Assembly (NCBI GenBank): GCA_002420005.1
Contig: DIHE01000052.1
Coordinates: 855 to 64,854, forward strand
DNA length: 64,000 nt
DNA from: Holophagales bacterium UBA5704
GTDB lineage: Bacteria; Acidobacteriota; Thermoanaerobaculia; Multivoradales; UBA5704
Direction: 5' to 3'
Under the pieces are notes generated by a model. It did no database searches, had not been told where the DNA came from, and saw only the letters and a list, made by a program, of their open reading frames with translations. Made by a program: the position numbers and the translations under genes. This document shows, piece after piece, positions 31,201-54,100 of this stretch; position 1 is the stretch's first letter; every line of letters begins with the position of its first letter.

Positions 31201-34200
31201 TTCGACCTGGGCGGCGACTCGATCCTCGCCACCAAGCTGGTGACCCGCCTGAACGAGGCGTTCGCGGCCGGCTTCTCGCTGCGCCTGGTGTTCGAGAAGC
31301 CGACCGTGGCGGACATGGCGGCCGTCATCCACGCGCAGCGCGCCGAAGGGGGCCGGATCGAGGAGGAGCGCATCCCGCGCATCCCGCGCGATGGGGGACC
31401 TTTGCCGGTCTCCTTCGCGCAGCGGCGGCTGTGGTTTCTGGATCAGCTCGCGCCGGGCGATCCGTTCTACAACGTGCCGGCGGCGGCGGAGCTGTCGGGA
31501 CCGGTCGATGCGGGCGTGCTCGGGCGGTGTTTTCTGGAGATCGTCCGCCGCCATGAGACGCTGCGCACGCGCCTGGCGAGCGTGGACGGCGAGCCGTTCC
31601 AGGTGGTGGAGGCGCCGCCGGCTTCCTGGACGGTGCCGCTGGTCGATCTGCGCGGCTTGCCGGCCGACCGCCGCGAGCCGGAGACCCGCACGCTCGCGGC
31701 GGCGGAGGCGCGGCGGCCGTTCGATCTCGCCGTGGCGCCGCTTCTGCGTACGCTCCTGGTGCGGCTGGAGGAGCAGCGCCACGCGATCTGCGTGACGATG
31801 CACCACACGGTCTCGGATGGCTGGTCGAACGTCGTCTTTCTGACCGAGATGGCGGCGCTGCACCAGGCGTTGCGGGACGGCCGGGAGCCGATCCTGCCGG
31901 AGCTGCCGATCCAATATGCCGACTTTGCAGCCTGGCAGCTCGCGCAGTTCGAAGGCGGCGTGCTGGCCGAGCAGCTCGCCTGGTGGACGGAGCAGCTCAC
32001 CGGCCTGCCGCCCGGCCTCGACCTGCCCACCGACCGGCCGCGCCCGCCGGTACAGACGTTCGGCGGCGCGCGGATTCCCCTGGTGGTCGAGCCCGCGGTG
32101 GCCGAGGGCCTGCGCCGCCGCGCCCGCGAGGAGGGCGCGACGCTCTACATGCTGCTCCTCGCCGCGATGGACGTGCTGCTCTACCGCCACACCGGCCAGA
32201 CCTCGTTCGCCGTCGGCACGGCGGTGGCGAACCGCAACCGGCGGGAGACGGAGAACCTGATCGGCTTCTTCACCAACACCCTCGTGCTGCGCGCCGCGAT
32301 GGACCCGGAGGAGAGCTTCCGTGCCCTGCTGCGGCGCACCCGCGACGTGGCGCGCCAGGCGTTCCAGCACCAGGACCTGCCGTTCGAGAAGATCGTCGAG
32401 GAGCTGCAGCCGGAGCGCGATCTCTCCCGCTCGCCGTTCTTCCAGGTGATGATGGTCGAGACCCTGGTCGAGAACCGCATGCTCGACGACATGGGCATCC
32501 GCCAGCTGGAGGTCGATCCCGGCGTGGCGCGGTTCGACTTCCTGTTCGACATGAGCGACCAGGGCCGGGAGCTGACCGGCGTCCTGGAATACAACTCCGA
32601 TCTCTTCGACGCCACCAGCGCCGACCGCATCGTCGGCCGCTGGCTCACCCTGCTCGCCGCGATCGCCGAGGACGGCGAGGCGCGGGTGGGGGAGATACGG
32701 TTGCTGGGGGCGGAGGAGTGGGCCGTGGTGGCGGCGGGACCCTCACCCCCCTGCCCCCTCTCCCACCCGTGCTCGCTCCCTCCCGGGAGAGGGGGAGAGC
32801 TGGCAGAAGCAACAGCGCTGGTCGGCTTGGATGGCGTGGAGACCACCTATGCGGAGCTGCGGGCGCGCAGCAACCGGCTGGCCGCGTGGCTGCGGCGCCA
32901 GGGGGTGGGGCCGGACGTGTTGGTGGCCTTTACACTGGAGCGGTCGGTGGAGCTGCTCGTCGTTTTCCAGGCGATCCTCACGGCGGGCGGGGCGTACGTG
33001 CCGGTCGATCCCGAGCTCCCGGAGGAGCGGCGGGCGTTGATCCTGGAGGACTCGGGCGCGCGGATCGTCCTCACCCGGCCGGTTCTGGAAGCGCTCGACC
33101 TGTCCTCGGAAAGCGCGGAGGACCTGCCGCCTCTCGCCGGGCCGGAGAACCTGGCCTATCTGCTGTACACCTCCGGCTCCACCGGGCGGCCGAAGGGCGT
33201 CGCGATGACCCGCGGTGCCCTGGACAACCTGATCGCCTGGCAGCTGGCGTCCTTGCCGGGTGCCTGGCGGACGCTGCAATTCACCGCCTTGAGCTTCGAC
33301 GTCTCGTACCAGGAGATCGTCTCCACCTGGGCCGCGGGAGGAACGCTCGTCCTCATCGGCGAGGAGGACCGGCGCGATCCGGCGGCGCTCTTGGCGGTGC
33401 TCCGTGCGCAGCGGGTGGAGCGGTTGTTTCTGCCGTTCGTGGCCTTGCAGCAGATCGCCGAAGCGGCGCGGGAGGAGGAGCTGCCGGAGAGCCTGCGCGA
33501 GGTGATCACGGCGGGCGAGCAGCTGCGCATCACCCCGGCCCTGGCCGCGATGTTCCGCCGCCTGCCCGGAGCCCGGCTGCACAACCAGTACGGGCCGACC
33601 GAGACGCACGTCGTCACCTCCTCGACGCTCGCGGGCGATCCCGCGCTCTGGCCGGCGCTGCCGCCGATCGGCCGGGCGTTCCCCGGTACGTGGGGGGTGG
33701 TGCTCGACCCGCACGGCGGGCCGGCCCCCCTGGGCGTCCCCGGCGAGCTGATGCTCGGCGGCGTCTGCCTCGCCCGCGGCTACCTCGGCCGCCCCGACCT
33801 CACCGCGGAGCGCTTCATCCCCGATCCGCTGGGTGATCCGTCCGATCCGTCCAATCCGTCCGATTCCCCGGGCGGGGGCCACCGCCTCTACCGCACCGGC
33901 GACCGCGCCCGCCTGCAACCGCGCGCCGGCGGCCCGCCCGAGCTGGAGTTCCTCGGCCGGCTGGACGACCAGGTGAAGATCCGCGGCTACCGCGTCGAGC
34001 CCGGCGAGGTGGAGGCGGTGCTCGCCGGCCATCCGGGGGTGGCGGCGGCGGCGGTGGCGGTGCGCGAGTCCGCGGCGGGTCTGCGGCTGGTGGCCTGGGT
34101 GGTGGCGGAGAAGGGGGCACCGGCGGATCTGCGGGCCTTCCTCGCCGCGCGCCTGCCGGATCACGCGGTGCCGTCGTCGATCACCGTGCTCGACGCCTTC

Positions 34201-37200
34201 CCGTTGACCTCCAGCGGCAAGGTGGACCGCCGGGCGCTGCCGGCCCCGGCCCTGGAGACCGGCGGCGGCCAGCTCGTCGCGCCGCGCACGGAGACCGAGG
34301 CGGTCCTGGCCGGCATCTGGCGCGAGGTGCTGGAGATCCCGCGCCTCGGCGTCACCGACGACTTCTTCGCCCTGGGCGGCCATTCGCTCCTCGCCACCCG
34401 TATCACCTCGCGGGTGCGGGCGGCGTTCGGCGTCGCCCTGCCGGTGCGCACGCTGTTCGAGGCGCCCACGGTGGCGCGGCTCGCGGCGCGCATCGACGAG
34501 GCGGCGGCCGGCGCTCCGGCACCGGAGGCACCGCCGCTCCTGCCGGTCCCGCGCGGCGGCGACTTCCCGCTGTCCTATGCGCAGCGGCGCCTCTGGTTCC
34601 TGCACACGCTGGACCCGGACACCGCGGCGTACCACATGACCGGCGCGTTCCGCCTGAGCGGCCCGCTCGCTCCGGCGGCTCTGGCCGGTGCGCTGCTCGC
34701 GATCGCCCGCCGGCATGAAGCCCTGCGCACCACCTTCCATCCCTCCGCCGGAGAGCCGGTGCAGCGGATCGCCGCCGCGGCGGCCCTGGCGCTGCCGCTG
34801 CTCGACCTGTCCGCCCTGCCGGAGGCGGTGCGCGACCGCGAGGCGCGGCGCATCGCCGAGAGCGAGGGGCGGCGGCCGTTCGACCTGGAGCAGGCGCCGC
34901 TCCTGCGCACCGCGCTGCTGCGCCTGGCGCCCGCGGAGCACCTGCTCACCACCACGCTCCACCACGCGGTGGGCGACGGCTGGTCCCTCGGCGTGCTGGC
35001 CGGCGAGCTGGCGGCGCTCTATCCGGCGGTCCTCGCCGGGGTGCCTCCCGCGCTGCCGGCGCTGCCGGTGCAGATGGTGGACTACGCGGTCTGGCAGCAG
35101 GGCTGGCTGCAAGGCGAGACGCTGCAGCGGCTGCTCCTGTGGTGGCGCGCGCACCTCGCCGGGGCCGAGGCGGCGCTGCGCCTGCCCACCGACCGGCCGC
35201 GGCCGGCGGGGCTGCTGCGCCACGCGCGCACCCTGCGCTTCCGGCTCCCCGGCGCGCTCGCCGAGGCGCTGGAGGCGCTCGGCCGGGAGCGCGGGACGAC
35301 CCTCTTCATGCTCCTCCTCGCCGGCTGGGAGGCCGTGCTGCACCGCTGGTCCGGGCAGGGCGATTTCACCGTCGGCTCGCCGATCGCCAACCGCCACCCG
35401 GCCGCGGTGGAGGGGGTGATTGGCTGCTTCGTGAACACCTTGGCGCTGCGCGCCCGGGTGGCGGGGGACGAGCCGTTCGGCGCCCTGCTGGCGCGGGTGC
35501 GCGACGAGACCCTGGGCGCCTACGACCACCAGGACCTGCCGTTCGAGGTGCTCGTCGAGGCGCTGCAGCCCGACCGCGAGCTGTCGCGCGCGCCGATCTT
35601 CCAGGTCCTCTTCGCCCTCCAGAACACGCCGATGCCGCGCTTCGAGCTGGCCGGCCTGGTGCTCGGCGCGGAGCCGGTCGATCTCGACACGCCGAAGCTC
35701 GACCTCTCGCTGATCCTGGAGCGCGGCGCGGAGGGCATCGACGCGGTGCTCGAATTCGCCGCCGACCTGTTCGACGAGGCGACGGTCGCCCGCCTGGCGC
35801 GCCACTGGGAGAACCTGCTCGGCGGTGCCGCCGCGGCGCCGGGGACGGCGGTGGGCCTGCTGCCGCTCCTCACCGCCGAGGAGCGGCGCGAGCTGCTGAT
35901 CGACAAGGTGCCGGCGCCGCTGCCGCTCGGTGGCCCCGCCCTGCTCCACGAGCGCTTCGCAGAGTGGGTGCGGCGGACGCCGGAGGCTCCCGCCCTGCGC
36001 GACGGCGACGCCGAGCTGACGTACCGCCAGCTCGCGGACAAGACGGATCGGCTCGCCGCCGCGCTGTGCGCCGCGGGCGTACGCCCCGGGGACCGCGTGG
36101 CCGTCGGCCTGCCGCGCAATGGCGCCGTGCCGGTGGCCGCCCTCGCCATCCTCAAGGCCGGCGCCGCCTGGCTGTATCTCGATCCCGCCTTGCCGCACGA
36201 CCGCATCGCCTTGATGGCCGCGGACGCCGGGGTCACCGCGCTCTGCACCGACGCGCCCGGCGAGGCCCTCCTGCGGCCGTTGATGCCCGCCGGGACCCCG
36301 GTGCTCGCCGTCGATCTGGAGCCCGTCGCGCCGGGAGAGCCGGTCGTGCTGCCGGGGCTCGATCTGCCGGGGACGGCGCTCGCCTACGTGATCTACACCT
36401 CGGGCTCCACCGGCCGGCCGAAAGGAGTCTGCGGCACCCACCATGGCGCGCTCAACCTGGCGGAGGCGCTGCAGCGCCACTCCCGCGTGCCGCCGGGCAC
36501 GGTGTGCAGCCAGTGGGCCAGTTACCTGTTCGACGCCTCGGTGCTGGAGCTGGCCGGCTGGTGGCTGGTCGGCGGCTGCCTCGACGTGGTGCCCGAGGCG
36601 GTGCGCACCGACGGCCCGGCGCTCGCCGCCTGGATGGAGCGGCGGCGGGTGGGCTGCGTCTTCCTGGCGCCCGCGATGCTGGTCGATTTCGCCGCCGGCT
36701 TCGAGCAGGCGGACGTGCCGCTCCTCCAGCTCACCTCCGGCGGCGAGGCGATGCTGACCGCGCCGCTCCAGTCCATCGCGCGGCGCCGGCCGCGGGCCTC
36801 GGTGTTCGACGTCTACGGCCCCACCGAGACCTCGATCGTGACCTCGTTCTGGCGCTATCCCATCGAGCGCGGCGAGGACCTCGCGGCCCACCAGCTCTAC
36901 GCGCCGATCGGCACGCCGTACGCCAACCAGCGGGTGTATCTGCTGAGCCCGCAGGGGGAGCCGGTGCCGGTGGGGGTGGCCGGCGAAGTCTGCTCCGGTG
37001 GCGGGTATCTCGCCCAGGGCTACCTGGCGCGGCCCGACCTGACCGCCGAGCGCTTTGTTCCCGACCCCTTTGGGCAGTTGCTGGATCCGACGGATCGGTC
37101 GGATCGGTCGGATCGGACGGATCAATCACTCCACGGTGGCCGCCTCTATCGCACGGGTGACCTCGCGCGGTGGCGGCCGGACGGCCTTCTGGAGTTCATC

Positions 37201-40200
37201 GGCCGGGTGGACCACCAGGTGAAGATCCGCGGCCAGCGCATCGAGCTGGGGGAGATCGAGGCGGCGTTGCAGCGCCTGCCGCAGGTGGTGGAGGCCGCGG
37301 TGCTCGCCAACCTGCGCGACGGCGAGAAGCGGCTGGAGGCCTATGTGGTGGCCGCGCCGGGCACGGAGCCGACGGCCGCGGAGCTGCGCCAGAGCCTCGC
37401 GGCGACGCTGCCGGACTTCATGCTGCCTTCGGCCTTCGCCTTCCTCGACGCCTTGCCGCGCAACACCAGCGACAAGGTGGACCGCGGCCGGCTCGCCGCC
37501 CTCGTGCCGGAGGCCACCGCGGCGGCGGCCGTCTACATGGCGCCGCGCACGCCCGCGGAGGAGCTGGTGGCCGGCGTGTGGGCCGAGGTGCTCGGCGTGG
37601 CGCAGGTGGGCGCGACCGACGACTTCTTCACCCTGGGGGGGCACTCCCTCCTTGCGACGCGCGTCGTCTCCCGCCTCCAGAAGCTCGCCGGGGTCACGCT
37701 CCCCGTGCGCGCCCTCTTCGAAAGCCCGACCGTCGAGTCCCTGGCGGCGAAGCTTGCGGGGATGGGCGGCGGCGCCCCTCTCCCGGGAGAGGGGAGAGCG
37801 GTGGGAGAGGGGGCGGGGGTGAGGCCCGTGCCGCGCGACCGGCCGCTGCCGCTGTCCTTTGCGCAGGAGCGCATCTGGTTCCTGGAGCAGCTCCAGCCGG
37901 GGAGCACCGCCTACCACCTGCCGGCGGCGATCGATCTCAAGGGCGACCTCCGGCCCGCGGCGCTCGCCGCGGCACTGGCGGAGATCCTGCGCCGCCACGA
38001 GGCGTTGCGCACCGTCTTCCGCGAAGAAGGAGGCCGGCCGGTGCAGGTGATCCTGCCGGCGCCGCCGCCGGAGCTGCCGGCGATCGACCTCGGCGGTCTG
38101 CCGGAGGCGGCGCGCGCGGCGGAGGCCGGGCGGCTCGCGGCGGCGTGGTTCAGCCGTCCGTTCGATCTCCAGGCGGAGCCGATGCTCAACGCCGCGCTGC
38201 TCGCCCTCGCGCCGGGCCTGCACCGGCTGCTCCTGCTGCAGCACCACATCGCCTCGGACGGCTGGTCGCTCGGCGTCCTGGTGCGCGAGGTGGCGGCGCT
38301 CTATCCGCTCGCCGCGGGCCTTCCGGGGGGCACCCGGCTGCCCGAGCCACCGATCCAGTTCGCCGACTTCGCGGTCTGGCAGCGCGAGCGGCTGCGCGGC
38401 GCCCTTCTGGAATCTCTGATCGAGGCCGGGCGCGCGCAGCTCGCCGGAGCGCCGCCGGCCACCGACCTGCCCACCGACCGGCCGCGCCCGCGCACCCAGA
38501 GCTTCCGTGGCGAGATCCTGAACGTCACCTACAGCGAGCGCGGCGCCGCCTCCATGGCGGCGCTCGCCCGGCGGGAAGGAGCGACGCTGTTCATGGCGCT
38601 CCTCGCGGTGTTCCAGGCGCTCCTCCAGCGCTGGAGCGGCGAGGACGACGTGGTGGTGGGCACGCCGGTCGCCGGGCGCACGCGGCCGGAGCTGGAGAAC
38701 CTGATCGGCGTGTTCATCAACACCCTGGCCCTGCGCGGCCGGCTGGACGGCGCGCCCACCTTCCGCCAGATGGTGGGCCGGGCGCGCGAGGCCGCGTTTG
38801 CCGCCTTCGCGATCCAGGAGCTGCCGTTCGAGACCCTGGTGGAGAAGCTGCACCCGGTGCGCGATCTCTCCCGGCCGCCGGTCTTCCAGACCATGTTCGC
38901 GCTCCAGAACGCGCCGCTCGGCCGCCTGGAGCTGCCCGGCCTGGTGCTGGAGCCGCTGCCCGCGGACGCCGGTGGCGCCAAGCTGGAGCTGCTCCTCTCG
39001 CTGACCGAGGAGGGGAGCACGCTCGCGGGGGGTCTGGAGTACAACACCACCCTCTTCGACCGCGCCACGGCCGAGCGGTTCCTGCGGCATTTCGGAGCCC
39101 TGGTGGAGGCCGCGGCGGCGGCGCCCGACGTGCCGCTCGCCCGCCTCTCGATCCTCGGGGCCGAGGAGCGGGCACAGCTCCTCGGCGCCTGGGCGGACGG
39201 CGGCGCCGTGCCGGCGGGCTCCGAGGAGCTGCTGCACGCCCGTTTCGCCGCCCTCGCGCTGGCCGAGCCCGCGGCGCCCGCGCTCACCTGGAACCGCCGC
39301 GACGTCTCCTATGGCGAGTTGGCGGCCCGCGCCTGGCGGCTGGCCCGCCACCTGCGCTCGCTGGGGGTGGGGCCGGAGGTGCGGGTGGGGATCTGCCTGG
39401 AGCGCTCGCCGGACCTCGTGGTCGCCCTCCTCGCGGTGCTCGCGGCCGGTGGCGCCTATGTGCCGCTCGATCCCACCCTGCCCGTCGAGCGGCGGGCGTT
39501 CCTGGTGCGCGACACCGCGATGCCGGTGCTCGTCGCCCGCCGCGGCCTGCTCGCCGGCCTGGCGCTGGACGGCCTCCACGTCGTCGATCCCGCCGAGGAG
39601 ACGGCGGCCCTCGCCGCCCTCTCCGCGGAGCCCTTGCCGCCCTCCGCGGACCCCGGCAACCTCGCGTATCTCATCTACACCTCCGGCTCGACCGGCGTCC
39701 CCAAGGGCGTCGCCATCACGCACCGCAACGCCTCCGCGTTCCTGCGCTGGGCCACGGGCTTCTGGAGCCGTGAGGACCTCGCCGCCGTGCTCGCCGCCAC
39801 CTCGGTGAGCTTCGATCTTTCGGTGTTCGAGCTGTTCGCCCCGCTCTCGGTGGGCGGCCGGGTGGTGCTGGTGGACAACGCGCTGCGCCTCCCGGAGGTG
39901 GCGGCGGACGGCGGCGTCACCCTGCTCAACACCGTGCCCTCCGCGCTGGCCGAGCTGCTGCGCCTGGGAGCGCTCCCCGCCACCCTGCGGGTGGTGAACC
40001 TGGCGGGCGAGCCGCTGCGCCGTCCGCTCGCCGACGCCCTCCACCAGGCCGGCGTGCCGCGCCTCTTCAACCTCTACGGCCCCTCCGAGGACACCACCTA
40101 TTCCACCTGGGAGGAGATCCTCCCGGGAAGCGTGGGGGAGCCCGGCATCGGCCGCCCCATCGCCGGCACCCGCGCCTGGGTGCTCGACCCCGAAGGCCAG

Positions 40201-43200
40201 CCGGCCCCGGCCGGCGTCCCCGGCGAGCTCTGCCTCGGCGGAGCCGGCCTCGCCCGCGGCTACCACGACCGGCCCGAGCTGACCGCGGAGAAGTTCGTCC
40301 CCAACCCCTTTGGAGATCCGTCGGATCCGTCGGATCGGTCGGATCCGTCCGATTCCCACGGAGCCCGCCTCTACCGCACCGGCGACCGCGCGCGCCGGCG
40401 GCCCGACGGCACCCTGGAGTTCCTCGGCCGGCTCGACCACCAGGTGAAGATCCGCGGTTTCCGCATCGAGCTGGGGGAGATCGAAGCCGCGCTCGCCACT
40501 TGCTCCGGAGTGGCGGAGGCGGCGGTGCAGGTGCGCGAGCGCGAAGGGGACCGCCGGTTGGAGGCCTTCCTGGTGGCGGCACCGGGGCCGGAGCCGGGCC
40601 TGGCGGCGCTCCGCGCCGAGCTGGGCCGGCGCCTGCCCGAGCCGATGATCCCCTCCGCCCTGATCTTCCTGCCGGCCCTGCCGCGCACCGCGACCGGCAA
40701 GGTGGACCGCCGCGCCCTGGCCGGGATCGAGGCGACCCCGGGCGGCATCCGGCGCGAGTACGTGCCGCCGCGGACGGACATCGAAGAGTGGGTGGTGGCG
40801 ACCTGCGCGCGGCTCCTCGGCGTGCCGCAGGTGGGCCTGCGCGACCGTTTCTTCGACCTCGGCGGGCACTCGCTCCTGGCCACCCAGCTCATCGCCCACC
40901 TGCGCGACGAGTGGTCCATCGAGCTGCCGCTCCCGGAGGTCTTCGCCGCGGTGGACATCGGCGACCTCGCCGACCGCATCACCGACCTGGGCCTCGGGCA
41001 GGCGGAGGACGCCGACCTCGCCGCCGCGCTCGCCGAGCTGGGCATCGACGCGCCCGGCGACGACCCGGAGGCCGAGATCCCGGCCGAGGTCCCGGCGCCG
41101 GCCGCCTTCGCCCCGCCGCCGCTCCAGCGCCTGCCGCGGCCGGCCGATCCCGCGGCGCCGTTCGAAGCGCCGCTCTCCTTCGCCCAGCTCCGCCTCTGGC
41201 TCATCGACCGCATCGAGCCCGGGAGCCCCACCTACAACGTCGGCCTCGCCGAGCGGCTGACCGGTGTGCTCGACCCCGCGCTCCTGGCCGGCGCGCTGGC
41301 CGCGGTGGTGCGCCGGCACGAGGCGGTGCGCACCACCTTCGCCGTGCGCGCCGGCGATCCGGTGCAGGTGATCCATCCGCCGGCACCCGTGCCGGTGCCG
41401 CTCCTCGACCTCACCGGCCTGCCGGAGGCCCTCCGCCGCGCCGAAGCGGCGCGCCTGGGGGTCGACGAGGAGATCCGGCCGTTCGATCTGGAGCACGGGC
41501 CGCTGCTGCGCACCTCCCTGCTGCGTCTCGCGCCGCAGGAGCACGTGCTGTTCCTCACCTTGCACCACATCGTCTGCGACGAGTGGTCGAACCGGTTGCT
41601 GCTGCGCGAGGCGATCCTGCTCTACGCGGCGCTCGCCACCGGCCGGCCCGCGGTGCTCCCGGCCGTGCCGGTGCACTATGCCGACTACGCGGTCTGGCAG
41701 CGCGGCTGGCTCACCGGCCCGGCGCTCGCCGCCCAGCTCGCCTTCTGGCGCGAGCGCCTCGCCGATCCGCCGGTCCTCGAGCTGCCCACCGACCGGCCGC
41801 GTCCGCCGTTGCAGACGTTCCGCGGCTCGCAGGTCCCGCTGCCGTTTCCGGCGGCCACGGCGGCCGGGCTCCTGTCGCTCAGCCACCACCACCGTCGCCA
41901 TGGCGCCACGCCGTTCATGACCCTCCTCGCCGCCTTCCAGGCCCTCCTGGCGCGTACGGCGGGGCAGACCGACCTCACCGTGGGGACGCCGATCTCCGGC
42001 CGCAACCGCACCGAGGTGGAGAACGTGGTCGGCTTCTTCCTGAACACCCTGGTGCTGCGCGCCGACCTCGCGGGCGATCCGGCTTTCGGCGAGATCCTGG
42101 ACCGCACCCGCGCCGGCGCCCTGGAGGCCTTCGGGCGCCAGGACCTGCCGTTCGAGAAGCTGGTGGACGAGATCGGCGTGCGCCGGAGCCTCGGCCATTC
42201 CCCGCTCTTCCAGGTGCTGTTCGTGCTCCTGCATGGCGCGCCCCTGCCCGCCACCGCGGCGGGCCTCGCCGCCGAGCCGTTCCCGGTCGAGGCGAAGACC
42301 GCCAAGTTCGATCTCACCGTGTCGCTCAGGGTCGACGGCGAGGCCCTGGGCGGGGTGATCGAGTACAACACCGACCTGTTCGACCGCACCACCGTGCTGC
42401 GCTTCGCCGAGCGCTTCCGCGTCCTCTGCGCCGCCGTGGTGGCCGACCCGGAGCGCCGGCTCGCCGCGCTGCCGCTCCTCACGGAGAGCGAAGCGCACCA
42501 GACGCTCCGCGAGCTGAGCGGTGCGCCGGCCCCGGCTGCCGCGGAGGTCGCGCTGCCGGAGCTCCTCGCCGCCTGGGCCGCCCGGGAGCCGGAGCGGATC
42601 GCGGTGGAGTGGGAAGGGGGCTCGCTCACCTACGCCGCGCTGGTGGACCGCGCCCGGGCGCGCGCCGCCGCGCTGCGGTCGGCTGGTGTGGGGCCGGAGG
42701 TGCCCGCCGCCTGCCTCGCCGGCCGCGGGCCCGAGCTGCCGGTCGACCTCCTCGGCGCCTTCTTCTCCGGCGGCGCCTGGCTGCCGATCGATCCCGCCTG
42801 GCCGGAGGAGCGGCGGCGGCTCGTCCGCGAGGAGAGGGGGGATGCGGGCTCCTCCTACGTCATCTACACCTCCGGCTCGACCGGGCGGCCGAAGGGGGTC
42901 GCCGTCCCCGCGCGGGTGCTGACCAACCTCGTGCTCTGGCAGATCGATCCAAGGCGCCCTGGGGCCACGCCGGACGCGGCGCGGACGCTGCAATTCTCGT
43001 CGCCGAGCTTCGACGTCTCGCTGCAGGAGATGCTCTCCACCTGGTGCACCGGCGGCACGCTCGTCCTCTCCACGGAGGAGGACCGGCGCGATCCCGCCGC
43101 GCTCGCCCGCCACCTGCGGGAGGCGCGGATCGAGCGGCTGTTCCTGCCCACGGTGGCCCTGCAGCAGCTCGCCGTCTGCCTCGCCCGGCCCGAGACCCCG

Positions 43201-44313: not shown

Positions 44314-45101
44314 GGGGGGCCGGGGACGCCCGACGGCTACGTCCGAGCGGGGGCTATCGCAACCTGCGGTCGTTCCAGGTCTCCACGCTCATCTATGACG
44401 CGACGGTCTCGTTCTGCGATCGCTTCCTGGACAAGCGGTCCCGCACCGTGGACCAGATGGTGCAGGCGGCGCGCAGCGGGCGGCAGAACATCGCCGAAGG
44501 CAGCCGGGCCTCGGCCACCTCGTCGCAGACCGAGCTGCGCCTCGTCAACGTCGCGCGGGCGAGCCTCGACGAGCTTCTGCTGGACTACGAGGACTTCCTG
44601 CGCCAGCGCAGCAAGCGCCAATGGGCGAAGGATGACCGCGAAGCCCGGGAGGTGCGGGCGGTCGGGAGAGCCGGCTCCGCCGCCGCCGCCCCGTACGCTC
44701 CCTGGCTGAGCCACGCCGACCCGGGCGTGGTGGCGAACGCAGTGATCTGCCTGATCCACCAGGCCAACTACTTGCTCGACCAGCAGATCGCCGCGCTGGA
44801 GCGCGATTTCATCCACCAGGGCGGCTACAGCGAGACCCTTGCGGCAGCCCGGCTCGCCGAACGCGACCGCCAGCGGCACCGGGGCCTTGTGGATCGGACG
44901 GATCCGACGGATCGGACTGATCCGTCCGATGACTTGGCCCCGACTGCCGCGGAGGCCCCGCCGGCTTGCCCGGCCTGTGGCAAGGCCATGGCCTTGCGGA
45001 TCGCCCGACAGGGTGCCCGTGCCGGGTCCCGGTTCTGGGGTTGCACGGGCTACCCGCACTGCAAGGGAACACGGCCGATCGAAGGCGTGCCGCCATGCTG
45101 A
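44310..45101 (+). CDS. Four-helix-bundle protein (23S rRNA intervening-sequence protein family) with C-terminal topoisomerase-type C4 zinc finger
   Basis: The frame is open from GTG 44310, which overlaps the NRPS stop as GTGA; there is no in-frame ATG before the conserved core. The core is YRNLRSFQVSTLIYDATVSFCDRFLDKRSRTVDQMVQAARSGRQNIAEGS...ELRLVNVARASLDELLLDYEDFL. The C-terminus is CPACGKAMALRIARQGARAGSRFWGCTGYPHCKGT. The start codon is uncertain. Confidence 0.75.
   Translation: MRGAGDARRLRPSGGYRNLRSFQVSTLIYDATVSFCDRFLDKRSRTVDQMVQAARSGRQNIAEGSRASATSSQTELRLVNVARASLDELLLDYEDFLRQRSKRQWAKDDREAREVRAVGRAGSAAAAPYAPWLSHADPGVVANAVICLIHQANYLLDQQIAALERDFIHQGGYSETLAAARLAERDRQRHRGLVDRTDPTDRTDPSDDLAPTAAEAPPACPACGKAMALRIARQGARAGSRFWGCTGYPHCKGTRPIEGVPPC
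44891..44930. repeat. 9-bp GATC microsatellite, locus 4 (linker of the four-helix-bundle / zinc-finger protein)
   Basis: ggatcggac ggatccgac ggatcggac tgatccgtc cgatgac. Translated DRTDPTDRTDPSDD. Confidence 0.9.
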
Positions 45102-48100
45102 GCCTCTCCCACACCCAGCGTGGCCTCTGGTTCCTTCACCGCCTGCACCCGGGGAGCACCGCCTACCACATGGCCACCCTCACCCGGGTGGTGGGCGATG
45201 TGCCCGTGGAGGCCATCCGTGCCTCGTTCCAGCGGATGCTCGACCGCCATCCCGCGCTGCGCACCACGTTTCCGCTGGTGGGAGACGAGCCGGCGCAGGT
45301 GATTCCGGAGGCGGGGGAGGTGGCGTTCGAGGTGGTCGAGGCGACGGGGTGGAGCGCGGGGGCGCTGCGCGCCGCGATGGAGGCGGCGGCGTACCGGCCG
45401 TTCGACCTCCAGCGCGGGCCGATCTTCCGCGCCACGGTGTTCGTCCACGGCGCGGAGCGCTACCTGGTGGCTGCGATGCACCACATCGTCTCCGACTTCG
45501 CCGCGCTGGCGAATCTCCTGCGCGAGGCGCCGCCGGAGGGGAAGAGCTTTGCGCAGTTCGTCGCCTGGCAGGCGGAGATGCTCGCCGGGCCGGAGGGGGA
45601 GAGGCTGGAGGCGTTCTGGCGCGAGCGGCTGGACGGCCTGCCGGAGCTGAATCTTCCCGCCGACCGGGTCAAGCCCGCCCATGCGCCGGAGCAGGCGGGC
45701 GCCGTCTGGCGCACGATTGCGCCCGCCACCCTCGGCCCGCTCAAGGCGCTCGCCCGGGCCGAAGGAGCCACCCTCTACGTGGTCCTTCTCGCCGCCTGGC
45801 AGACGCTGCTCTCGCGCTACACCGGGCAGGAGGACTTCGCCGTCGGCTCTCCGGTGGCCGGCCGGCCGGCGGGCTACGGCCGGGTGTTCGGCTACTTCAC
45901 GAATCCCCTGGTGCTGCGCGCGGATCTGGCGGGCGATCCGCCGTTTCGCACGCTGGTGGAGCGCACCCGGCGGCGGGTGGTGGAGGCGCTGGATCATCAG
46001 CACTTCCCTCTGCCCCTTCTGGTCGAGCGCCTGCGCGCCCGCTCCGAGCTGTTCCGCACCCTCTTCGTCTTCCACCGCGCGCCCGCCGGGGCCGAGGGGC
46101 TGGTCGGCTTCTCGCTGGGCCGCGGGGGCGCCCGCCTGCCGATCGACGGCTTCGCGCTGGAGTCGCTCCCGAACGCCCCGCGTGGCTCGCAATTCGACCT
46201 GACCCTCGCGGCCGGCGAGATGGCGGGCGCCCTGGAGCTGCAGATCGTCTACGACGCCGCCCGCTTCGACGCGCCGACGCCCGCGCGCTGGCTGCAGCAC
46301 TTCGACCGCCTGCTCGCCGGGGTGGCGGAGAACCCCGAGTGTCCGCTCTCCGCCTTGCCCTTGCTCACCCCCTGGGAGCGCCACCACCTGCTCGCCGAGG
46401 TCAACGACGGCGCGGACGCCGGTCTCCCCTGGCCCACCCTGCACGAGGGCTTCGAGCGCCAGGCGCGGCAAACCCCACAGGCGACCGCCCTGATCGACGG
46501 CCTCCGCCGCCTCACCTACCAGGAGCTGGACGAGCGCGCCACCGCCCTCGCCGAGGACCTCCGCCGCCGCGGGGCCGGCCCGGAGACCGTGGTGGCCGTC
46601 AAGCTGCCGCGCACCGCGGAGCTGATCGTGGCTTTGCTGGGCGTGTTGAAGAGCGGCGCGGCGTACCTGCCGCTCGACCCCACCTACCCGGAGGAGCGGA
46701 TCGCGTTCATGTTGGCGGATGCGGGGGCCGAGTGGTTGCTGGGGCCTGGTGGGATCGGACGGATGGGACCGATCCGACCGATCCGACCCATCGAAGGCGA
46801 CGCCGGCTCCCGCCGGCTCGCTTACCTCATTTACACCTCCGGCTCCACCGGCCGCCCGAAGGGCGTCGCCATCGAGCATGCCGCCGCGGTGCGGCTGGTG
46901 GCCTGGGCGCGCGCGGCGTTTTCCCCGGCGGAGCGGGCGGGGGTGCTGGCGGCCACCTCGGTGAATTTCGACCTGTCGATCTTCGAGATCTTCGTCCCGT
47001 TGTCGACGGGGGGCGCGGTGATCCTCGCCGAGAACGCGCTGGCCCTCCCGGAGCTGCCGGCGCGGGGCGAGGTCACCCTCGTCAACACCGTCCCCTCCGC
47101 GCTCGCCGGGCTGTTGGAGATGGGACCGCTGCCGCCCTCCGTGCGCACGGTCAACCTGGCCGGCGAGCCGCTGCGGCGCGCCCTGGCGGACCAGATCCTC
47201 GCCACCGGGGTCAAGCTGTGGGATCTCTACGGCCCTTCCGAGGACACGACCTACTCGACCGGCGCGGTGGTGGCGGGAGAGCCCGGGGAGCCCTTGATCG
47301 GCTGGCCGCTCGCCGGCTCGCGCGCCTTCGTGCTCGACCGCCGGGGAGACCCGGCGCCGCTCGGCGTCCCCGGCGAGCTGTGCCTGGGCGGGGGAGGCCT
47401 CGCCCGCGGCTACCTCGGCCGCCCCGAGCTGACCGCCGAAAAGTTCATCCCCGCACCGTTTGATCTGGCTGATCCCCGCGGCGCGCGCCTCTACCGCACC
47501 GGCGACCTCGTGCGCCGCCGCCCCGACGGCGCCCTCGAGTACCTGGGGCGCCTCGACCACCAGGTGAAGATCCGCGGGTTCCGCATCGAGCTGGGCGAGG
47601 TCGAGGCGGCGCTGCTGGCCCTCCCCGGCGTGCGCGAGACGGTGGTGGTGGCACAGGGCGGGGCGCTCGTCGCCTACGTGGTGGGCGAAGCCGGCGCTCT
47701 GGAGGAGGCCCTGCGGCAGCGGCTGCCGGCGCCCTTCGTGCCGTCGTTCTTCGTCGCTCTCGATGCGCTGCCGCGCACCCCGAACGGCAAGGTGGACCGC
47801 AAGGCCCTGCCGGCTCCGGTGGTGGCCGAGGAACATGCCACGGAGGCGCCGGTCGGGCCGGTGGAGGAGGCGGTGGCGGCGGTCTGGGCGGCGGTCCTGG
47901 GGCGTGAGCGGATCGGCCGGTTCGAGCGCTTCTTCGAGCTGGGCGGCCATTCGCTCCTGGCCGCGCGGGTGGTGGCGCGGCTGCGCGAGGCGCTCGGGCT
48001 CGATCTGCCGTTGACCGCGCTGTTCGACGCTCCCACGGTGGCGGGTCTCGCGCTGCGCATCGCCGCGGCGCGGGCGGCGGCGGAGGCGCCGCTCGTACCG

Positions 48101-51100
48101 GTGCCGCGCGACCGTCCCTTGCCGCTTTCCTTCGCCCAGCACCGCCTCTGGTTCCTGGATCGCCTGGAGCCCGGCAGCCCCCTCTACAACGTGCCGATCG
48201 CCTTCGCCCTGCACGGGCCGTTCGCGCCGGCGCGCCTGGAGGGGGTCCTCTCCGCGATCGAGCGGCGGCACGAGGCGCTGCGCACGGTGTATCCCGCGGC
48301 GGCCGGCGTCCCCCGCCAGGAGATCCTGCCGGCGCAGCCGTTCTCCCTGCCGGCGGTCGACCTCTCCGGCCTGCCGGAGGCCGTGCGGGAGACGGTCGCC
48401 CGCGGGCTGCGCGCGGCCGAGGCGCGGCGGCCGTTCGACCTGGAGCGCGGCCCGGTCTGGCGGGCGCTCTGCGTGCGGCATGGGGAGACGCGCCACGAGG
48501 TTCTGCTGACCCTCCACCACATCGCCGGCGACGGCTGGTCGCTGGATGTCCTGGAGCGCGACGTGGCCGCCCTTTTCACCGGGGATACGCTGCCGCCCTT
48601 GCCGGTGCAGCCGGCCGACGCCGCGGTCTGGCAGCGCGAGCGGCTGACCGGGGCGCGCCTGGCGGCGGACCTCGCGTGGTGGCGGACGCGGCTGGCCGGC
48701 GCGCCGCCGCTCGACGTCCCCGGGGACCGCCCGCGCCCCGCCGCGCCCACCGTGCGCGGCTTCCACATCGTGGCGCCGTTTCCGGCGGACCTCGCCACGG
48801 ACCTGCGGGCGTTGCGCCGCCACGCCGCCGGGGACCTGACGCTCTACCAGGTCCTGCTCGCCGGCTTCGTGGCCCTCCTGGGGCGCTGGAGCGATCAGCG
48901 CGACGTGGTGCTCGGTGCGCCGGTGGCCGGCCGCGGACGCACCGAGCTGGACGGCGTGATCGGCCTCTTCGTCAACACGCTCGTCCTGCGCTTCGACCTG
49001 ACGGCCGAGCCGGGCTTCGCGGCGCTCGCCGGGCAGGCGCGGTCGGTCGTCGTGGAAGCCCAGGCGCAGGGCGAGATGCCGTTCGAGCGGCTGGTCGAGG
49101 AGCTGGCACCGGATCGCGCCGCCGGCCGGGCACCGCTCGCCCCGGTGCTGTTCGACCTCGCCCACGCGGCACCACCGCGCGAGCTGCCGGGCGGCCTGCG
49201 CCTCCGCCGCCTCCCGGTCGCCTCCGGCACCGCCAAGCTCGACCTCATCCTGCACGTGCAGGAGGAGGGAGACACCCTGACCGCCGATCTGGAGGCGAGC
49301 GCCGACCTGTTCGACCGCACCACCGGCCGGCGGCTCGTCGAGGCCTGGCTGCGCCTGCTCGCCGCGGCCGTGCGGGCGCCGGAGGTCCGGTTCACCGATC
49401 TCCCCCTGCTCTCCGCCGTCGAGCAGGCCGAGATCGTCTGCGAATGGAACGACACCGCCGGGGAGGCGCCGCGCGCCGCCCATCTCTACGATCTGTTCGA
49501 CCGCCATGTGCGCGAGCGCCCGGACTCTCTGGCCGTGGTGTGGAACGAGACCCGGCTCACCTGGGAGGAGCTCGCCGCCCGGGTGAGCGCGCTCGCGCAG
49601 CCTCTGCGCGCGCTGGGCGTGGGACCGGAGGTGCCGGTCGCCTTCTGCCGCGAGCGCGGCCCAGGGCGGCTCGTCGCCCTGCTGGCGATCCTCCAGGCCG
49701 ACGGGCTCTACGTCCCCCTCGACCCCGCCTGGCCGGACGAGCGGCTCGCCTGGATTCTCGACGACTGCGCCGCACCGGTCCTGCTCACCGAATCCTCCTT
49801 GCAGGACCGGTTCCGCGGCTTCCGCGGGACGCTCCTGCGCGAGGGCGACGAGGTGGGCGCGCCGGCCTCCACGCCTCTTCGGCCCCGCGGAACGGGTGCC
49901 GCCTACCTCATCTACACCTCGGGCTCCACCGGTCGCCCCAAGGGCGTGCTCATCGAGCACCGCGCGGCGGCCTCGCACGCTTCGAGCTTCGCCGCGTCAT
50001 TCGGTCTCGGGCCGGACGACCGCATGCTGCAAGTCGCCTCGATCGGCTTCGATCTGAGCGTCGAGGAGATCTTCGTCGCCTTCGCCGCCGGGGCCGTGCT
50101 GCACATCGGTCCCGCCGAGATGGCGCTGTCCGCCACCGTCTTCCTGGACCTGTGCCGGCGGTGGGGGCTTACCATGGTCACCCTGACGACCGCGTTCTGG
50201 CACGAGATCGTCCGCGAGATCGAGGCACGCCCGGAGGCGCTGCCGCCGACCCTGCGGCTGGTCACCATCGGCGGCGAAACCGTGCTGCCGGAGCGGGTCG
50301 CCGCCTGGTGGCGCCACGCCGGGCCGGACGTCCGCCTGTTCAACACCTATGGCCCCACCGAGGCCACGGTCATCGCCACCGGGCTCGTGGTGGGGGAGGA
50401 CACGCTCGGCGGCCCGTTCGGCGTCCCCCTCGGCCCGCCCTTGCCGCACATCCGCGCCTACGTTCTCGACCGCGCGCTGCGGCCGGTGCCCCCGGGCGTC
50501 CCGGGCGAGCTCTGCATCGGCGGCGCCGGCGTCGGGCGCGGCTACCTGGGCCGGCCGGATCTCACCGCGGAGCGCTTCGTCCCGGACCCGTTCGGCCTTG
50601 GGGGCGACCGCCTCTACCGCACCGGCGACCGCGCCCGCCACCGCCCGGACGGCCGCCTCGAATTCCTCGGCCGTGTCGACCACCAGGTGAAGATCCGCGG
50701 CTTCCGCATCGAGCCGGGCGAGACGGAGGCCGTGTTGGCCACCTGCCCCCTGGTGGCCGGGGTGGCGGTCCTCGCCCTGCCGGACGACCGGGGGGAGCTG
50801 CGCCTCGCCGCCTTCGTGGTCCCCGCTCCCGGTGCGGCTCCCACGCCGTCCGCGCTGCGCGCCTTCCTGCTCGCTCGCCTGCCGGAGCACCAGGTGCCGT
50901 CCGCCTTCACGATCGTGCCGGCCCTGCCGCTCACGCCGAACGGCAAGCTCGACCGGCGCGCCCTGGCCCGGCTCCGGCCGACGGAGGACGCCGCCGCGCC
51001 GCCGGCCCGGTGGCTGCCGCGCGATCCGGTGGAGGAGCAGGTGGCCGCCGTGTGGGCCGAGGTCCTGGAGGTCCCGGTGGAGCAGATCGGGCCGCGCGCC

Positions 51101-54100
51101 GACTTCTTCGCTCTCGGCGGGCACTCGCTCCTCGCCACCCGCATCGGCGCGCGGCTGCACCAGGCGTTCGGTGTGGACGTGCCCCTGCGCGACGTCCTGG
51201 AGGTCCCGGTGATCGAGGAGCTGGCGGCGCGCGTCCGCGGCCTGCTGGCCGGCACCTCCGCGGAGGCCCCGGTGCCGCCGCTCCTGCCGGTGCCACGGAC
51301 CTCCCCGCCGCCGCTCTCGTTCGCACAGCTCCGGCTGTGGATCATCGACCGCATCGAGCCCGGCTCCGCGGCCTACAACGTCGCCCTGGCCGTCCGCCTG
51401 GAGGGGGCTCTGGAGCCTGCGCTGCTCGCCGCGGCGCTGGGGGAGGTGGCGCGCCGGCAGGAGGCGGTGCGGACCACGTTCAGGGTGGAGGGCGGTGATC
51501 CGGTGCAGATCGTCCATCCGCCGGCCCCGGTCCCCCTGCCGCTCCTCGATCTCGGCGCCTTGCCGGACGCCGCGCGGGCCGCCGAGGCGCTGGCGTGGGC
51601 GCGGGCGGAGGAGAGCCGGCCGTTCGACCTGGAGAACGGCCCCCTGCTGCGTGCCGCCGTGCTGCGGCTCGCGCGGGAGGAGCACCTGCTGCTCCTCAAC
51701 CTGCATCACGCCATCTGCGACGAATGGTCGCTGCGTCTGCTGTTCGGCGAGGTCGTCACCCTCTATGCCGCCGGCCGTTCCGGCACGGCGGCGACGCTGC
51801 CGGTGTTGCCGGTGCAGTACGCGGACTTCGCCGTCTGGCAGCGCGGCTGGCTGACCGGCCCGGTGCTCGCCGCGCAGCTCGCGTTCTGGCGGGAGCGGCT
51901 CGCCGATCCGCCCGTCCTCGAGCTGCCCACCGACCGGCCCCGGCCGCCGGTGCAGACCAACCGCGGTGCGCGTCTTCCCTTCGTGGTGCCGCCTGCGACC
52001 GGTGCGGCGCTGCGCGCCCTGGGGCGGAGCCGGGGAGCCACCGCCTTCATGACCTGCCTCGCCGTCTGGCAGGCGCTCCTCGCGCGCACCGCCGGGCAGA
52101 CCGACCTGACCGTCGGCACGCCGATCACCGGCCGCTCCCGCGCCGAGGTGGAGAGCCTGATCGGCTTCTTCCTGAACACCCTGGTGCTGCGCGCCGATCT
52201 CTCCGGCGATCCCGGATTCGCCGAGATGGTGGACCGCGCCCGCGTCCGCGCCCTGGAGGCCTTCGCCCACCAGGACCTGCCGTTCGAAAAGCTGGTGGAC
52301 GAGCTCGGCGTGCGCCGCAGCCTCGGCCATGCGCCGCTCTTCCAGGCCCTCTTCGTCCTCCTCCACGCCACGCCGCTCCCCGCCGCGGCCACCGGCCTGC
52401 GGGCCACCCCGTTCGCCACCGGCGGGGCGACCGCGAAGTTCGACCTGACCCTGGACCTGGAAGCCGACGGCGACGCGCTGACCGGTGTGATCGAGTACAA
52501 CACCGACCTGTTCGACGCCACCACGGCGCGGCGGCTCGCCGCCCGCTTCTGTGCCCTCGCCGCGGGAGCCGCAGCCGATCCGGAGTGTCCCCTCTCGGCC
52601 CTCCCCGTCCTCCCGGAGGGCGAGGCGCACCAGATCCTCCACGAATGGAACGACCGGCCGCCGCGCCACGACGTGGAGGTGCCTCTGCACGGCCTCGTCG
52701 AAGCCTGGGCGGACACCGATCCGGAGCGCCCCGCGGTGGAGTGGGAGGGGGGCTCCTTCACCTACGCGGAGCTGGTCGGCCGCGCCCGCGCGCTCGCCGT
52801 CCGCCTGCGTTCGCTGGGCGTCGGGCCGGACGTCCCGGTCGCCGTCTACGCCGAGCGGGGACCCGAGCTCGCCGTCGCCTTCCTGGCCATCCTGGAAGCG
52901 GGCGGCGCGTATCTCCCGATCGATCCCTCCTACCCGCAGGAGCGCCAGCTCTTCATGCTGCAGGACTCCGGTGCTCCGGTGCTGCTGGTGCCCGAAAGCC
53001 TCCTGGAGGCGGCGCCGCCGACGTCGGCCCGGGTGGTGGCCCTCACCTCTGCATCGGACGGATCGGTCGGATCGGTCGGATCGATCCGATCCGGTCCTGG
53101 AAGCGAGGCCACCGCCTACTTGATCTACACCTCCGGCTCCACCGGGCGCCCGAAAGGCGTCGCGGTGCCGCACCGGGTGCTGGCCAACCTGATCCTCTGG
53201 CAGCTCGACCCTGCACGGCCGGGCTCGTTGCCGGGTGCCTGGCGGACGCTCCAGTTCGCCTCGCCGAGCTTCGACGTGTCGCTCCACGAGATGCTCGCCA
53301 CCTGGTGCGCCGGGGGCACCCTGGTGCTCGCCTCGGAGGAGGACCGCCGCGATCCGGAACGCCTGGTGCGCCACCTGGCCGAGGCGGGTGTCGAGCGCCT
53401 GTTCCTCCCCTTCGTCGCCCTGCAGCAGCTCGCCGACCGGCTGGCGCGGCCGGAGACGCCGGTCCCGGCGCGCTTGCGGCGCGTGATCACCGCCGGTGAG
53501 CAGCTCCAGGTCACCCCGCAGGTCGTCGAGGCCTTCCGCCGGCTCTCGGCGGCGACCGGTGGCACCGCGCTCCACAACCACTACGGGCCGTCGGAGACCC
53601 ACGTGGTCACCGAGCTGATCCTCGACGGCGATCCGGCGCTCTGGCCCGCGCTGCCCGCGATCGGCCGGCCCCTCTCCGGCGTCACCACCCACCTGCTCGA
53701 CCGCGCCTTCCAGCCGGTGCCGGTGGGCGTGGTGGGGGAGCTGTTCCTGGGAGGCCTCTCCCCGGCGCGAGGCTACCTCGGCCGCCCCGACCAGACCGCC
53801 GAGCGCTTCCTCCCCGATCCCTTCAGCGATGCGTCCCACCCCGGAGGCCGCCTCTACCGCACCGGCGACCGGGCGCGCCTCCTTCCCGACGGCACCGTCG
53901 AGTTCCTCGGCCGCATCGACCACCAGGTGAAGATCCGCGGCTACCGCATCGAGCCTGGGGAGATCGAGGCCGTGCTCGCGGCGCATCCCAAGGTGCGGGA
54001 GTGCGCGGTGGGGGTGCGGGAGGGTCATCGCGAGAAAGGGCCGGGCGACCGGCGCCTCATCGCCTGGGTGGTGACCACGGGCGAGCTCGGCCCGACCGAG

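Follow-up and report, generated by a model that had tools for sequence, protein, structure and literature searches.

Nine-base-pair GATC arrays in synthetase loops of a Thermoanaerobaculia genome and their probable home in a small four-helix-bundle/zinc-ribbon gene

Two neighbouring nonribosomal peptide synthetase (NRPS) genes of Holophagales bacterium UBA5704, together with the small gene that lies between them, carry the same GATC-containing 9-bp tandem unit at six places, and the question that this locus raises is how a single short repeat came to lie, always in frame, in so many different protein segments. We analysed a window of 64,000 nucleotides from this bacterium (contig DIHE01000052.1, positions 855 to 64,854 of the forward strand, here C133:855-64854), whose genome, G000 in our numbering, is a 90%-complete assembly of 8.02 Mb in 207 contigs with 68.8% GC. 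The names borne by its close homologues put this soil bacterium in Thermoanaerobaculia (Acidobacteriota). Our answer is that the tracts are probably the local members of a family of 9-bp arrays that is dispersed and restricted to certain lineages, and that would have its stable home in the small gene, the one coding for a protein with a four-helix bundle and a zinc ribbon. The unit of this family is GATC-N-G-W-C-N, or here GATC-S-G-W-C-S, repeated in arrays of 3-6 units. The family is apparently undescribed, as a literature search retrieved no description of the 9-bp units or of the function of TIGR04258, one of the families to which the small protein is assigned.

A preliminary description of the window, made from the letters alone, had placed six expanded tracts and one single-unit site in loops of the synthetases and in the linker of the small protein, read in different frames. 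Tandem Repeats Finder (TRF), with which we called the arrays, as well as direct reading and translation, bear out the places and show that three frames are used (Table 1). At all six loci the units stand head-to-tail with a period of 9, in 3.3-4.8 copies, so the unit length is indeed a multiple of three and the frame is kept. The statement that every unit contains GATC is approximately right, a few units reading AATC, CATC or GATG. The motif GGATCSGWC has 20 matches in the window, as opposed to 5.8 +/- 2.7 in dinucleotide-preserving shuffles, none of which (0 of 100) reached 20. The placement in loops also stands. When aligned to solved adenylation (A) domains, array 2 appears as an insertion of 19-20 residues, the tract ahead of core A3 falls in a poorly aligned, variable segment, and the linker tract of the small protein is modelled as disordered. 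The tract of array 2 is missing from the closest homologue of its A domain in a congener (G001, 74% nucleotide identity). As for the fourth A domain of the first synthetase, the position and reading of its single unit are as first described; we regard it as the minimal state of the tract, because three of the four single-unit loops ahead of core A7 in this genome share the right-hand context (D-S/H-G-G) of the expanded arrays, and this state may be that of an unexpanded site, as had been suggested, or of a collapsed one.

The arrays extend well beyond this locus. We searched G000 for chains of GATCSGWCS units, with at least three units per array, and found 44 arrays of 27-54 bp each; the contig of the window has more of them than any other (n = 6). 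The preliminary description had named absence of the tracts elsewhere in the genome, together with an invariant copy number, as grounds for its refutation, and these grounds do not hold here. Of the 44 arrays, 21 lie in NRPS-type megasynthase open reading frames (ORFs), whose share of the genome is 8.55%; one further array lies 40 nt from a megasynthase ORF at a contig end, and another is the one in the small gene of the window cluster. The remainder mostly fall outside credible ORFs (around 20 arrays lie outside long ORFs), with a smaller number in a few non-NRPS proteins, and several of the non-NRPS arrays come directly after stop codons. Within the synthetases, arrays are found ahead of cores A7 and A3, in the linkers between adenylation and thiolation (A-T) and between thiolation and condensation (T-C) domains, in a loop of the C domain and in a methyltransferase loop. 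They are bunched, since the 21 arrays fall in 13 of 92 ORFs vs 18.2 ORFs expected (P = 0.001).

What is constrained in these arrays is the DNA and not the peptide. The aspartate codon is GAT in 51 of 57 instances (89%) within arrays vs 27% in the rest of the NRPS ORFs, the 22 arrays located in ORFs are read in three frames (15 as D[PR][ST], five as GS[VD] and two as I[RG][PR]), and there are non-coding copies. Six of the nine unit positions are kept in genomes that range from 38 to 70% GC. Since the consensus of the unit equals its reverse complement, the same three readings arise from either strand. At the W position in the middle of the spacer, the arrays of this lineage are strictly polar: the leftmost spacer reads GAC and the rightmost GTC in 48 arrays (19 + 29), while the opposite arrangement is found in none. 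ATCGGAC...GTCCGAT pairs are separated by 6, 15, 24 or 33 nt, divergent pairs are absent, and the borders are often CATC on the left and GATG on the right. This shared A..T polarity speaks for the view that the arrays of the lineage either descend from a common source or have been homogenised against one. A hairpin made by the array as a whole was considered and looks doubtful, as the palindrome score of whole arrays is not above that of shuffles and the sole polar position is W, whose polarity is lineage-specific.

A separate observation concerns the kind of difference found between units. In the arrays of G000 and in loci L031-L070, differences at the three variable positions are almost always complementary, C for G at S and A for T at W, and not transitions. 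Transition variants, such as GATT, GATCTG and GATCAG, are common only in carriers of lower GC content.

The family is tied to the small gene of the window. Its product scores 31.6 bits with TIGR02436 (cut-off 24) and 71 bits with TIGR04258 (cut-off 40), and PF05635 is annotated on its homologues. In the AlphaFold model, a helical bundle is followed by a disordered linker at residues 190-212, which corresponds to the tract of array 4, and by a small beta zinc ribbon. The best Foldseek match is 2rld, a protein of the S23/intervening sequence (IVS) family, and the resemblance to GRF zinc fingers is weak. The GTG start codon overlaps the TGA of the first synthetase (GTGA, 44310-44313) and the TGA stop codon overlaps the ATG of the second synthetase at 45095 (ATGCTGA, 45095-45101), an arrangement suggesting that the small gene is translationally coupled within the NRPS operon. 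In the window, no arrays flank the small gene.

Its homologues are found in unrelated neighbourhoods, and nearly all of the 120 closest ones carry a (D[RPQ][ST])n linker, with n of about 2-8 and a linker length of 28-53 residues. The orthologues of G001 and G009, for instance, have different gene neighbourhoods and the same linker array in about 8 and 4 units, respectively, compared with 4 in G000; the unit number therefore varies between orthologues, which agrees with the preliminary description. A scan of species-representative genomes detected at least 527 relatives, one of them in the cultured Pontiella sulfatireligans F21. The 80 that match best belong to Thermoanaerobaculia, Verrucomicrobiota, Planctomycetota, Kiritimatiellia, Lentisphaeria, Myxococcota, delta-proteobacteria, KSB1, Nitrospiria, Armatimonadota, Chlorobium and others, and the protein identity across phyla is 55-89%. 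We compared 68 full-length loci, drawn from more than 10 phyla, and 55 of them have at least one array. Arrays stand in the 5' leader (22), in a loop in the middle of the gene (33), in the linker (24) and just after the stop codon (14), compared with only four arrays in 159 kb of outer flanks. Across phyla, GAT is the codon of nearly every linker aspartate, including in genomes of 50-60% GC. In our reading, the small gene is a horizontally spread orphan with arrays at up to four fixed places. Four of these loci have arrays both upstream and downstream of the gene, each mostly of the GAC type and in direct orientation, which makes the formation of an IVS-like stem from the upstream and downstream arrays doubtful.

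Two more genes with the 4helix_suffix domain are present in G000 (C179:17884-18561 and C161:23445-24113), and both lack the zinc ribbon and the arrays. Such array-free, ribbon-free genes indicate that the arrays go with the zinc-ribbon subfamily and not with the suffix domain itself.

Among the relatives of this bacterium the arrays are patchy. A three-unit pattern, whose reversed version gave no hits in any genome, was found in 7 of 41 relatives: five belong to the genus, which has six genomes, and two make up another genus in the family, while the 33 remaining relatives lack it. Even within the genus, G001, with more than 100 arrays, has 258 hits vs none in its congener G004. Where the arrays occur, their sites differ, as those of G001, G009 and G019 are mostly in NRPS loops, chiefly ahead of core A9 and in a second C-domain loop, both of which are unused in G000. 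At the level of the phylum, the pattern was found in 4 of 401 sampled genomes; full-length homologues of the small gene are present in G000, G045, G090 and G304, with a partial one in G072. In the distant Acidobacteriota G045 and G090, the arrays lie in or beside the homologue of the small gene. Arrays are present in 3 of 5 gene carriers vs 1 of 396 other genomes, and the corresponding hypergeometric P of about 4e-6 is overstated because the gene itself contains arrays. With a two-spacer pattern, the number of hits in genomes carrying the gene ranges from 0 to 108, and a Phycisphaerae metagenome-assembled genome (MAG), G443, shows a large expansion, with about 30 dispersed arrays (loci L176-L194), mostly intergenic.

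In the Phycisphaerae genome, further short repeats of 20-90 bp, likewise dispersed, recur in the flanks of the arrays, a pattern suggestive of composite clusters. A Pirellula sp. MAG, G438, has two homogeneous arrays that are much longer and purer than any in G000, one of about 17 units of GATCTGTCT (C23:160121-160277) and the other of about 11 units of GATCTGTCC (C28:128511-128613). The homogeneous array of about 17 units shows that growth of the slippage type does occur.

Table 1. Features of the NRPS locus, numbered from the first letter of the window; cores are those of the A domains
Feature	Position	Strand	Copies (TRF)	Unit sequence or peptide	Content or location
First NRPS gene	28207..44313	+			5368 aa, four A domains; hosts arrays 1-3 and the single unit
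Array 1	33835..33864	+	3.3	GATCCGTCC GATCCGTCC AATCCGTCC GAT; peptide DPSDPSNPSD	First synthetase, A domain 1, loop preceding core A7 (RLYRTGD)
Array 2	37083..37123	+	4.6	peptide DPTDRSDRSDRTD	A domain 2, preceding core A7 (RLYRTGD)
Array 3	40315..40353	+	4.3	peptide DPSDPSDRSDPSD	A domain 3, preceding core A7 (RLYRTGD)
Single unit	43566..43576	+		GATCCGTCG; peptide GDPS (FGDPS-ARLYRTGD)	A domain 4, before core A7
Small gene	44310..45101	+			Four-helix bundle (TIGR02436/PF05635), 4helix_suffix (TIGR04258) and topoisomerase-type C4 zinc ribbon (PF01396)
Array 4	44891..44927	+	3.8 (at 44891-44924)	peptide DRTDPTDRTDPSD	Linker of the small gene
Second NRPS gene	45095..54580	+			About 3160 aa, three A domains; hosts arrays 5 and 6
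Array 5	46752..46792	+	4.0	GIGRMGPIRPIRPI; unit frame 3	Second synthetase, first A domain, variable stretch between cores A2 and A3, ahead of YTSGSTG
Array 6	53053..53096	+	4.8	SDGSVGSVGSIRS; unit frame 2	Second synthetase, third A domain, ahead of core A3 (YTSGSTG)

As to the setting of these features, a search for NRPS core motifs found 92 megasynthase ORFs with about 140-160 A domains in G000, and the biosynthetic load of the genome is unusually large, given the share of megasynthase ORFs reported above. A regular-expression search for the ketosynthase (KS) motif found none in these ORFs, and no Rfam family matched within positions 28000-55000 of the window. Just upstream of the first synthetase gene, at positions 27843-27931, there is a G-rich 39-bp repeat in 2.3 copies (TRF score 106). 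Two contig ends, C91:379-414 and C180:379-414, both carry an array in the A-T linker and are 98.4% identical over 320 nt; their arrays differ at one S position (C/G), which could stem from a mixture of strains in the MAG or from duplication in the very recent past. Four arrays of G000 lie less than 400 nt from contig ends, and the arrays or the surrounding NRPS context may break assemblies.

How could arrays that reside in a small gene have reached the loops of synthetases? In some hosts, including this Thermoanaerobaculia genus, they would have multiplied to further loci, and a new array may arise through short-patch copying of an existing one, whether by gene conversion, by template switching or through a trans-acting factor, with nearby targets being preferred. 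The 9-bp units could then be gained or lost via replication slippage or unequal exchange. Selection would spare those arrays that are in frame and located in permissive, surface-exposed loops and linkers, in which NRPS modules are rich, and of the three frames the hydrophilic D-[PR]-[ST] reading would be tolerated best. Under this explanation, the arrays in the synthetases are most likely passive, disordered loop insertions that are neutral for the enzymes.

Several observations weigh against this explanation. No enzyme or mechanism that copies arrays came to light, and profile and fold searches with the small protein found no recognisable catalytic domain in it. The co-occurrence of gene and arrays is partly trivial, given that the arrays are inside the gene, and it is also imperfect: G002, G005 and G074 have arrays and no detected small gene, and G004, G010, G018 and G025 have a 4helix_suffix gene and no arrays. 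The A..T polarity, from which we deduced a common source, fails in the cassette arrays of other phyla and is specific to this lineage. When metagenome contigs were scanned with the exact flanks of the array 2 locus, no other copy turned up. Finally, the density of arrays is about 32 per Mb in NRPS ORFs vs about 13 per Mb in intergenic DNA by a rough estimate, and this excess means that tolerance alone is no explanation and that either a benefit to NRPS genes or an NRPS-specific mode of spread is possible.

One alternative is that the arrays are working cis-sites, bound in an iteron-like manner by the small protein or by another conserved factor that recognises GATC-N-G-W-C-N, with GAC vs GTC setting the orientation of each unit. 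In NRPS genes, such sites could serve in regulation, in transcript processing or in pausing, or they could be short portable homologies that promote recombination between modules where domains and subdomains meet. Besides the density, this reading would account for the preservation of six of the nine unit positions over such a range of GC contents alongside a protein that is itself 55-89% identical across phyla, and for the arrays that the small gene has in its leader and immediately behind its stop codon. The zinc ribbon belongs to a type that binds nucleic acids (PF01396), with the weak resemblance to GRF zinc fingers mentioned above, the small gene is apparently coupled inside an NRPS operon, and the contig of that operon is the richest in arrays. 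In addition, positions ahead of cores A3, A7 and A9 and in inter-domain linkers are borders of exchangeable units. However, arrays are missing from most NRPS genes and from 137 of 148 A domains at the site preceding core A7, site usage differs among congeners in a way that better fits drift than function, the arrays of the Phycisphaerae genome are mainly intergenic, and no A domain of G000 has arrays flanking the specificity core on both sides. We consider it rather unlikely that the arrays are cis-sites. A further proposal is an undescribed two-part system, present in many bacterial phyla, in which the small protein would recognise the arrays, as DNA or as RNA, and promote their copying or exchange between loci; in NRPS-rich genomes the arrays would then be portable junctions at the borders of domains and subdomains and would make the recombination of synthetase modules faster. 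This we judge improbable.

A simpler possibility is that these are plain coding microsatellites, which is how the preliminary description had read them. Slippage on the spot from a native GATCCGTCG-like seed would have made the tracts, and A-domain paralogy would have shared them between domains. Tracts that are head-to-tail, of period 9 and in frame are what slippage would leave, single-unit sites do exist ahead of core A7 (in the fourth A domain of the first synthetase and in three more), neighbouring units are slightly more alike than pairs from a shuffled pool (0.54 vs 0.48, P = 0.005), and the very long homogeneous arrays of Pirellula show expansion of this type. Nevertheless, seeds are rare, as only 4 of 148 loops ahead of core A7 have a single unit and 137 have none at all. 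The unit is not specific to a locus, being present at 44 loci of G000, and it recurs in three frames, at more than eight kinds of NRPS site, in intergenic DNA and, together with one family of four-helix-bundle/zinc-ribbon genes, in more than 10 phyla. Local slippage would also have to contend with the polarity fixed within the lineage (48:0) and with the patchiness among congeners. As for paralogy, we rejected it as the source of the shared tracts: when the loop is left out and a tree is made of 138 A domains, the five domains with a tract ahead of core A7 require five changes and the six with a tract ahead of core A3 require six, and the flanks of tract-bearing A domains are no more alike than those of random ones. 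The microsatellite explanation, already strained by these data, is therefore unlikely.

The dispersal of copies with inverted-type ends (ATCGGAC ... GTCCGAT), in numbers that differ widely between close genomes, recalls instead a miniature transposable element, comparable to the repetitive extragenic palindromes (REPs) and bacterial interspersed mosaic elements (BIMEs) or to MITEs, which are miniature transposable elements with inverted repeats. A transposase such as a REP-associated tyrosine transposase (RAYT) would move it by recognising a GAC...GTC hairpin, and Y1 transposase genes of the IS200/IS605 type are in fact present in G000. Such genes are nevertheless found irrespective of arrays, Y1_Tnp (PF01797) being detected in 35 of 41 relatives, and the four Y1_Tnp copies of G000 have no array at a distance of 800 nt or less. 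With Y1 transposases so common and not adjoining arrays, the RAYT/REP model was rejected. The arrays are not palindromic overall, and half of the copies are inside ORFs. The intergenic copies of G000 share neither flanks nor a larger element, so that a composite element around them was discarded as well. On balance, movement by a transposase seems very unlikely to us.

The proposal that the dense GATC sites are Dam-type methylation sites, or sites comparable to the cyanobacterial HIP1 palindromes, found no support, given that GATC has an observed/expected ratio of 1.06 under a Markov model and that a search with PF02086 found no methyltransferase gene of the D12 class in G000, other methylase classes not having been searched. 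Among the 41 relatives, PF02086 is present in five, with no correlation with the arrays.

Lastly, it is extremely improbable that selection acts on the peptide, a flexible acidic D-P/R-S/T linker convergently useful in synthetase loops and in the small protein, since the dominance of the D[PR][ST] frame in ORFs (15 of 22) and the keeping of this peptide, modelled as disordered, in the linker of all small-protein homologues are set against GAT being 89% of array aspartate codons in a genome that prefers GAC, against nearly all linker aspartate codons being GAT across phyla, against the same DNA being read elsewhere as GSV or IRP, and against the copies in leaders, after stops and between genes.

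If the tracts are indeed copies of a dispersed array family, it is worth asking which known repeats they resemble. The Rickettsia palindromic elements (RPEs), as Ogata and colleagues are said to have described in 2000, form a dispersed and patchy family that reportedly lies both in intergenic DNA and in frame within genes without destroying them. Each RPE is one palindrome of about 100-150 bp, and the hosts are A+T-rich bacteria with an obligate intracellular life. The GATC arrays are similar in being both intergenic and in frame within permissive parts of proteins, as well as in their patchiness among relatives. They differ in that they are tandem arrays of 27-54 bp made of a 9-bp unit and not palindromic overall, that their hosts are free-living, high-GC bacteria from many phyla, and that they are tied to one conserved gene. 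RPE-4 and RPE-6 are mentioned in PMC3733652, which also provides the framework for REPs and BIMEs with their RAYTs (REPtrons), including the GTAG- and CGTC-tagged REPs. Like REPs, which are short (20-40 bp; PMC3733652), the arrays are dispersed, have inverted-type ends, vary in copy number by species and are intragenic in some cases, and like GTAG REPs they have a dedicated associated gene. In contrast to REPs, they show no link with a RAYT and no unpaired GTAG/CGTC terminal tag, they have an internal 9-bp periodicity, about half of them are translated whereas REPs are predominantly extragenic, and the associated gene codes for a four-helix-bundle/zinc-ribbon protein and not for a transposase.

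The small gene suggests a second comparison, with the cassettes that interrupt 23S rRNA genes as IVSs. In both cases, a small gene of the TIGR02436/PF05635 superfamily is found as an orphan in unrelated neighbourhoods with repeats at both ends. The gene of our window, however, is located between two NRPS genes and outside rRNA, its product has a suffix domain and a zinc ribbon in addition, and repeats are also found inside its ORF. In addition, the four loci that have both flanking arrays show them in direct and not inverted orientation by the GAC/GTC criterion. Avd, an accessory protein of diversity-generating retroelements (DGRs), belongs to the same superfamily as S23p; PF05635 is mentioned in PMC10053308. 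Unlike the DGR/Avd systems, the loci that we saw have no reverse transcriptase near the small gene.

Two other classes of repeats share single traits with the arrays. The cyanobacterial HIP1 palindromes (GCGATCGC, with a GATC core) and the heptamer arrays known as short tandemly repeated repetitive sequences (STRRs) are lineage-specific repeats kept at the level of DNA and found also inside genes, as are the GATC arrays. Unlike the situation with HIP1, GATC is not in excess in G000, where no Dam-class methylase was found with PF02086, and there are tens of arrays per genome vs thousands of single sites, with a 9-bp unit that keeps the frame. The coding variable-number tandem repeats (VNTRs), or contingency repeats, of pathogens are locus-specific and located in surface or regulatory genes. 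The GATC arrays resemble coding VNTRs in that the unit number differs between relatives and a unit that is a multiple of three alters the length without a frameshift, but in contrast to contingency loci, one unit family is common to dozens of unrelated loci in many phyla.

Few repeat families are able to reside in protein-coding genes without disrupting them, and the arrays add one that crosses phyla. They also connect a repeat family with a conserved gene that has no assigned function and comes from the "rRNA intervening sequence/Avd" superfamily, and in doing so they offer a testable partner for it. For those who assemble and annotate genomes, near-identical arrays of 30-50 bp in paralogous megasynthase genes are likely points of breakage and mis-joining. 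For the engineering of natural products, the arrays mark positions in A domains, C domains and linkers that naturally tolerate 9-18 extra disordered residues, and if it were true that they promote exchange, they would also bear on the reshuffling of synthetase modules.

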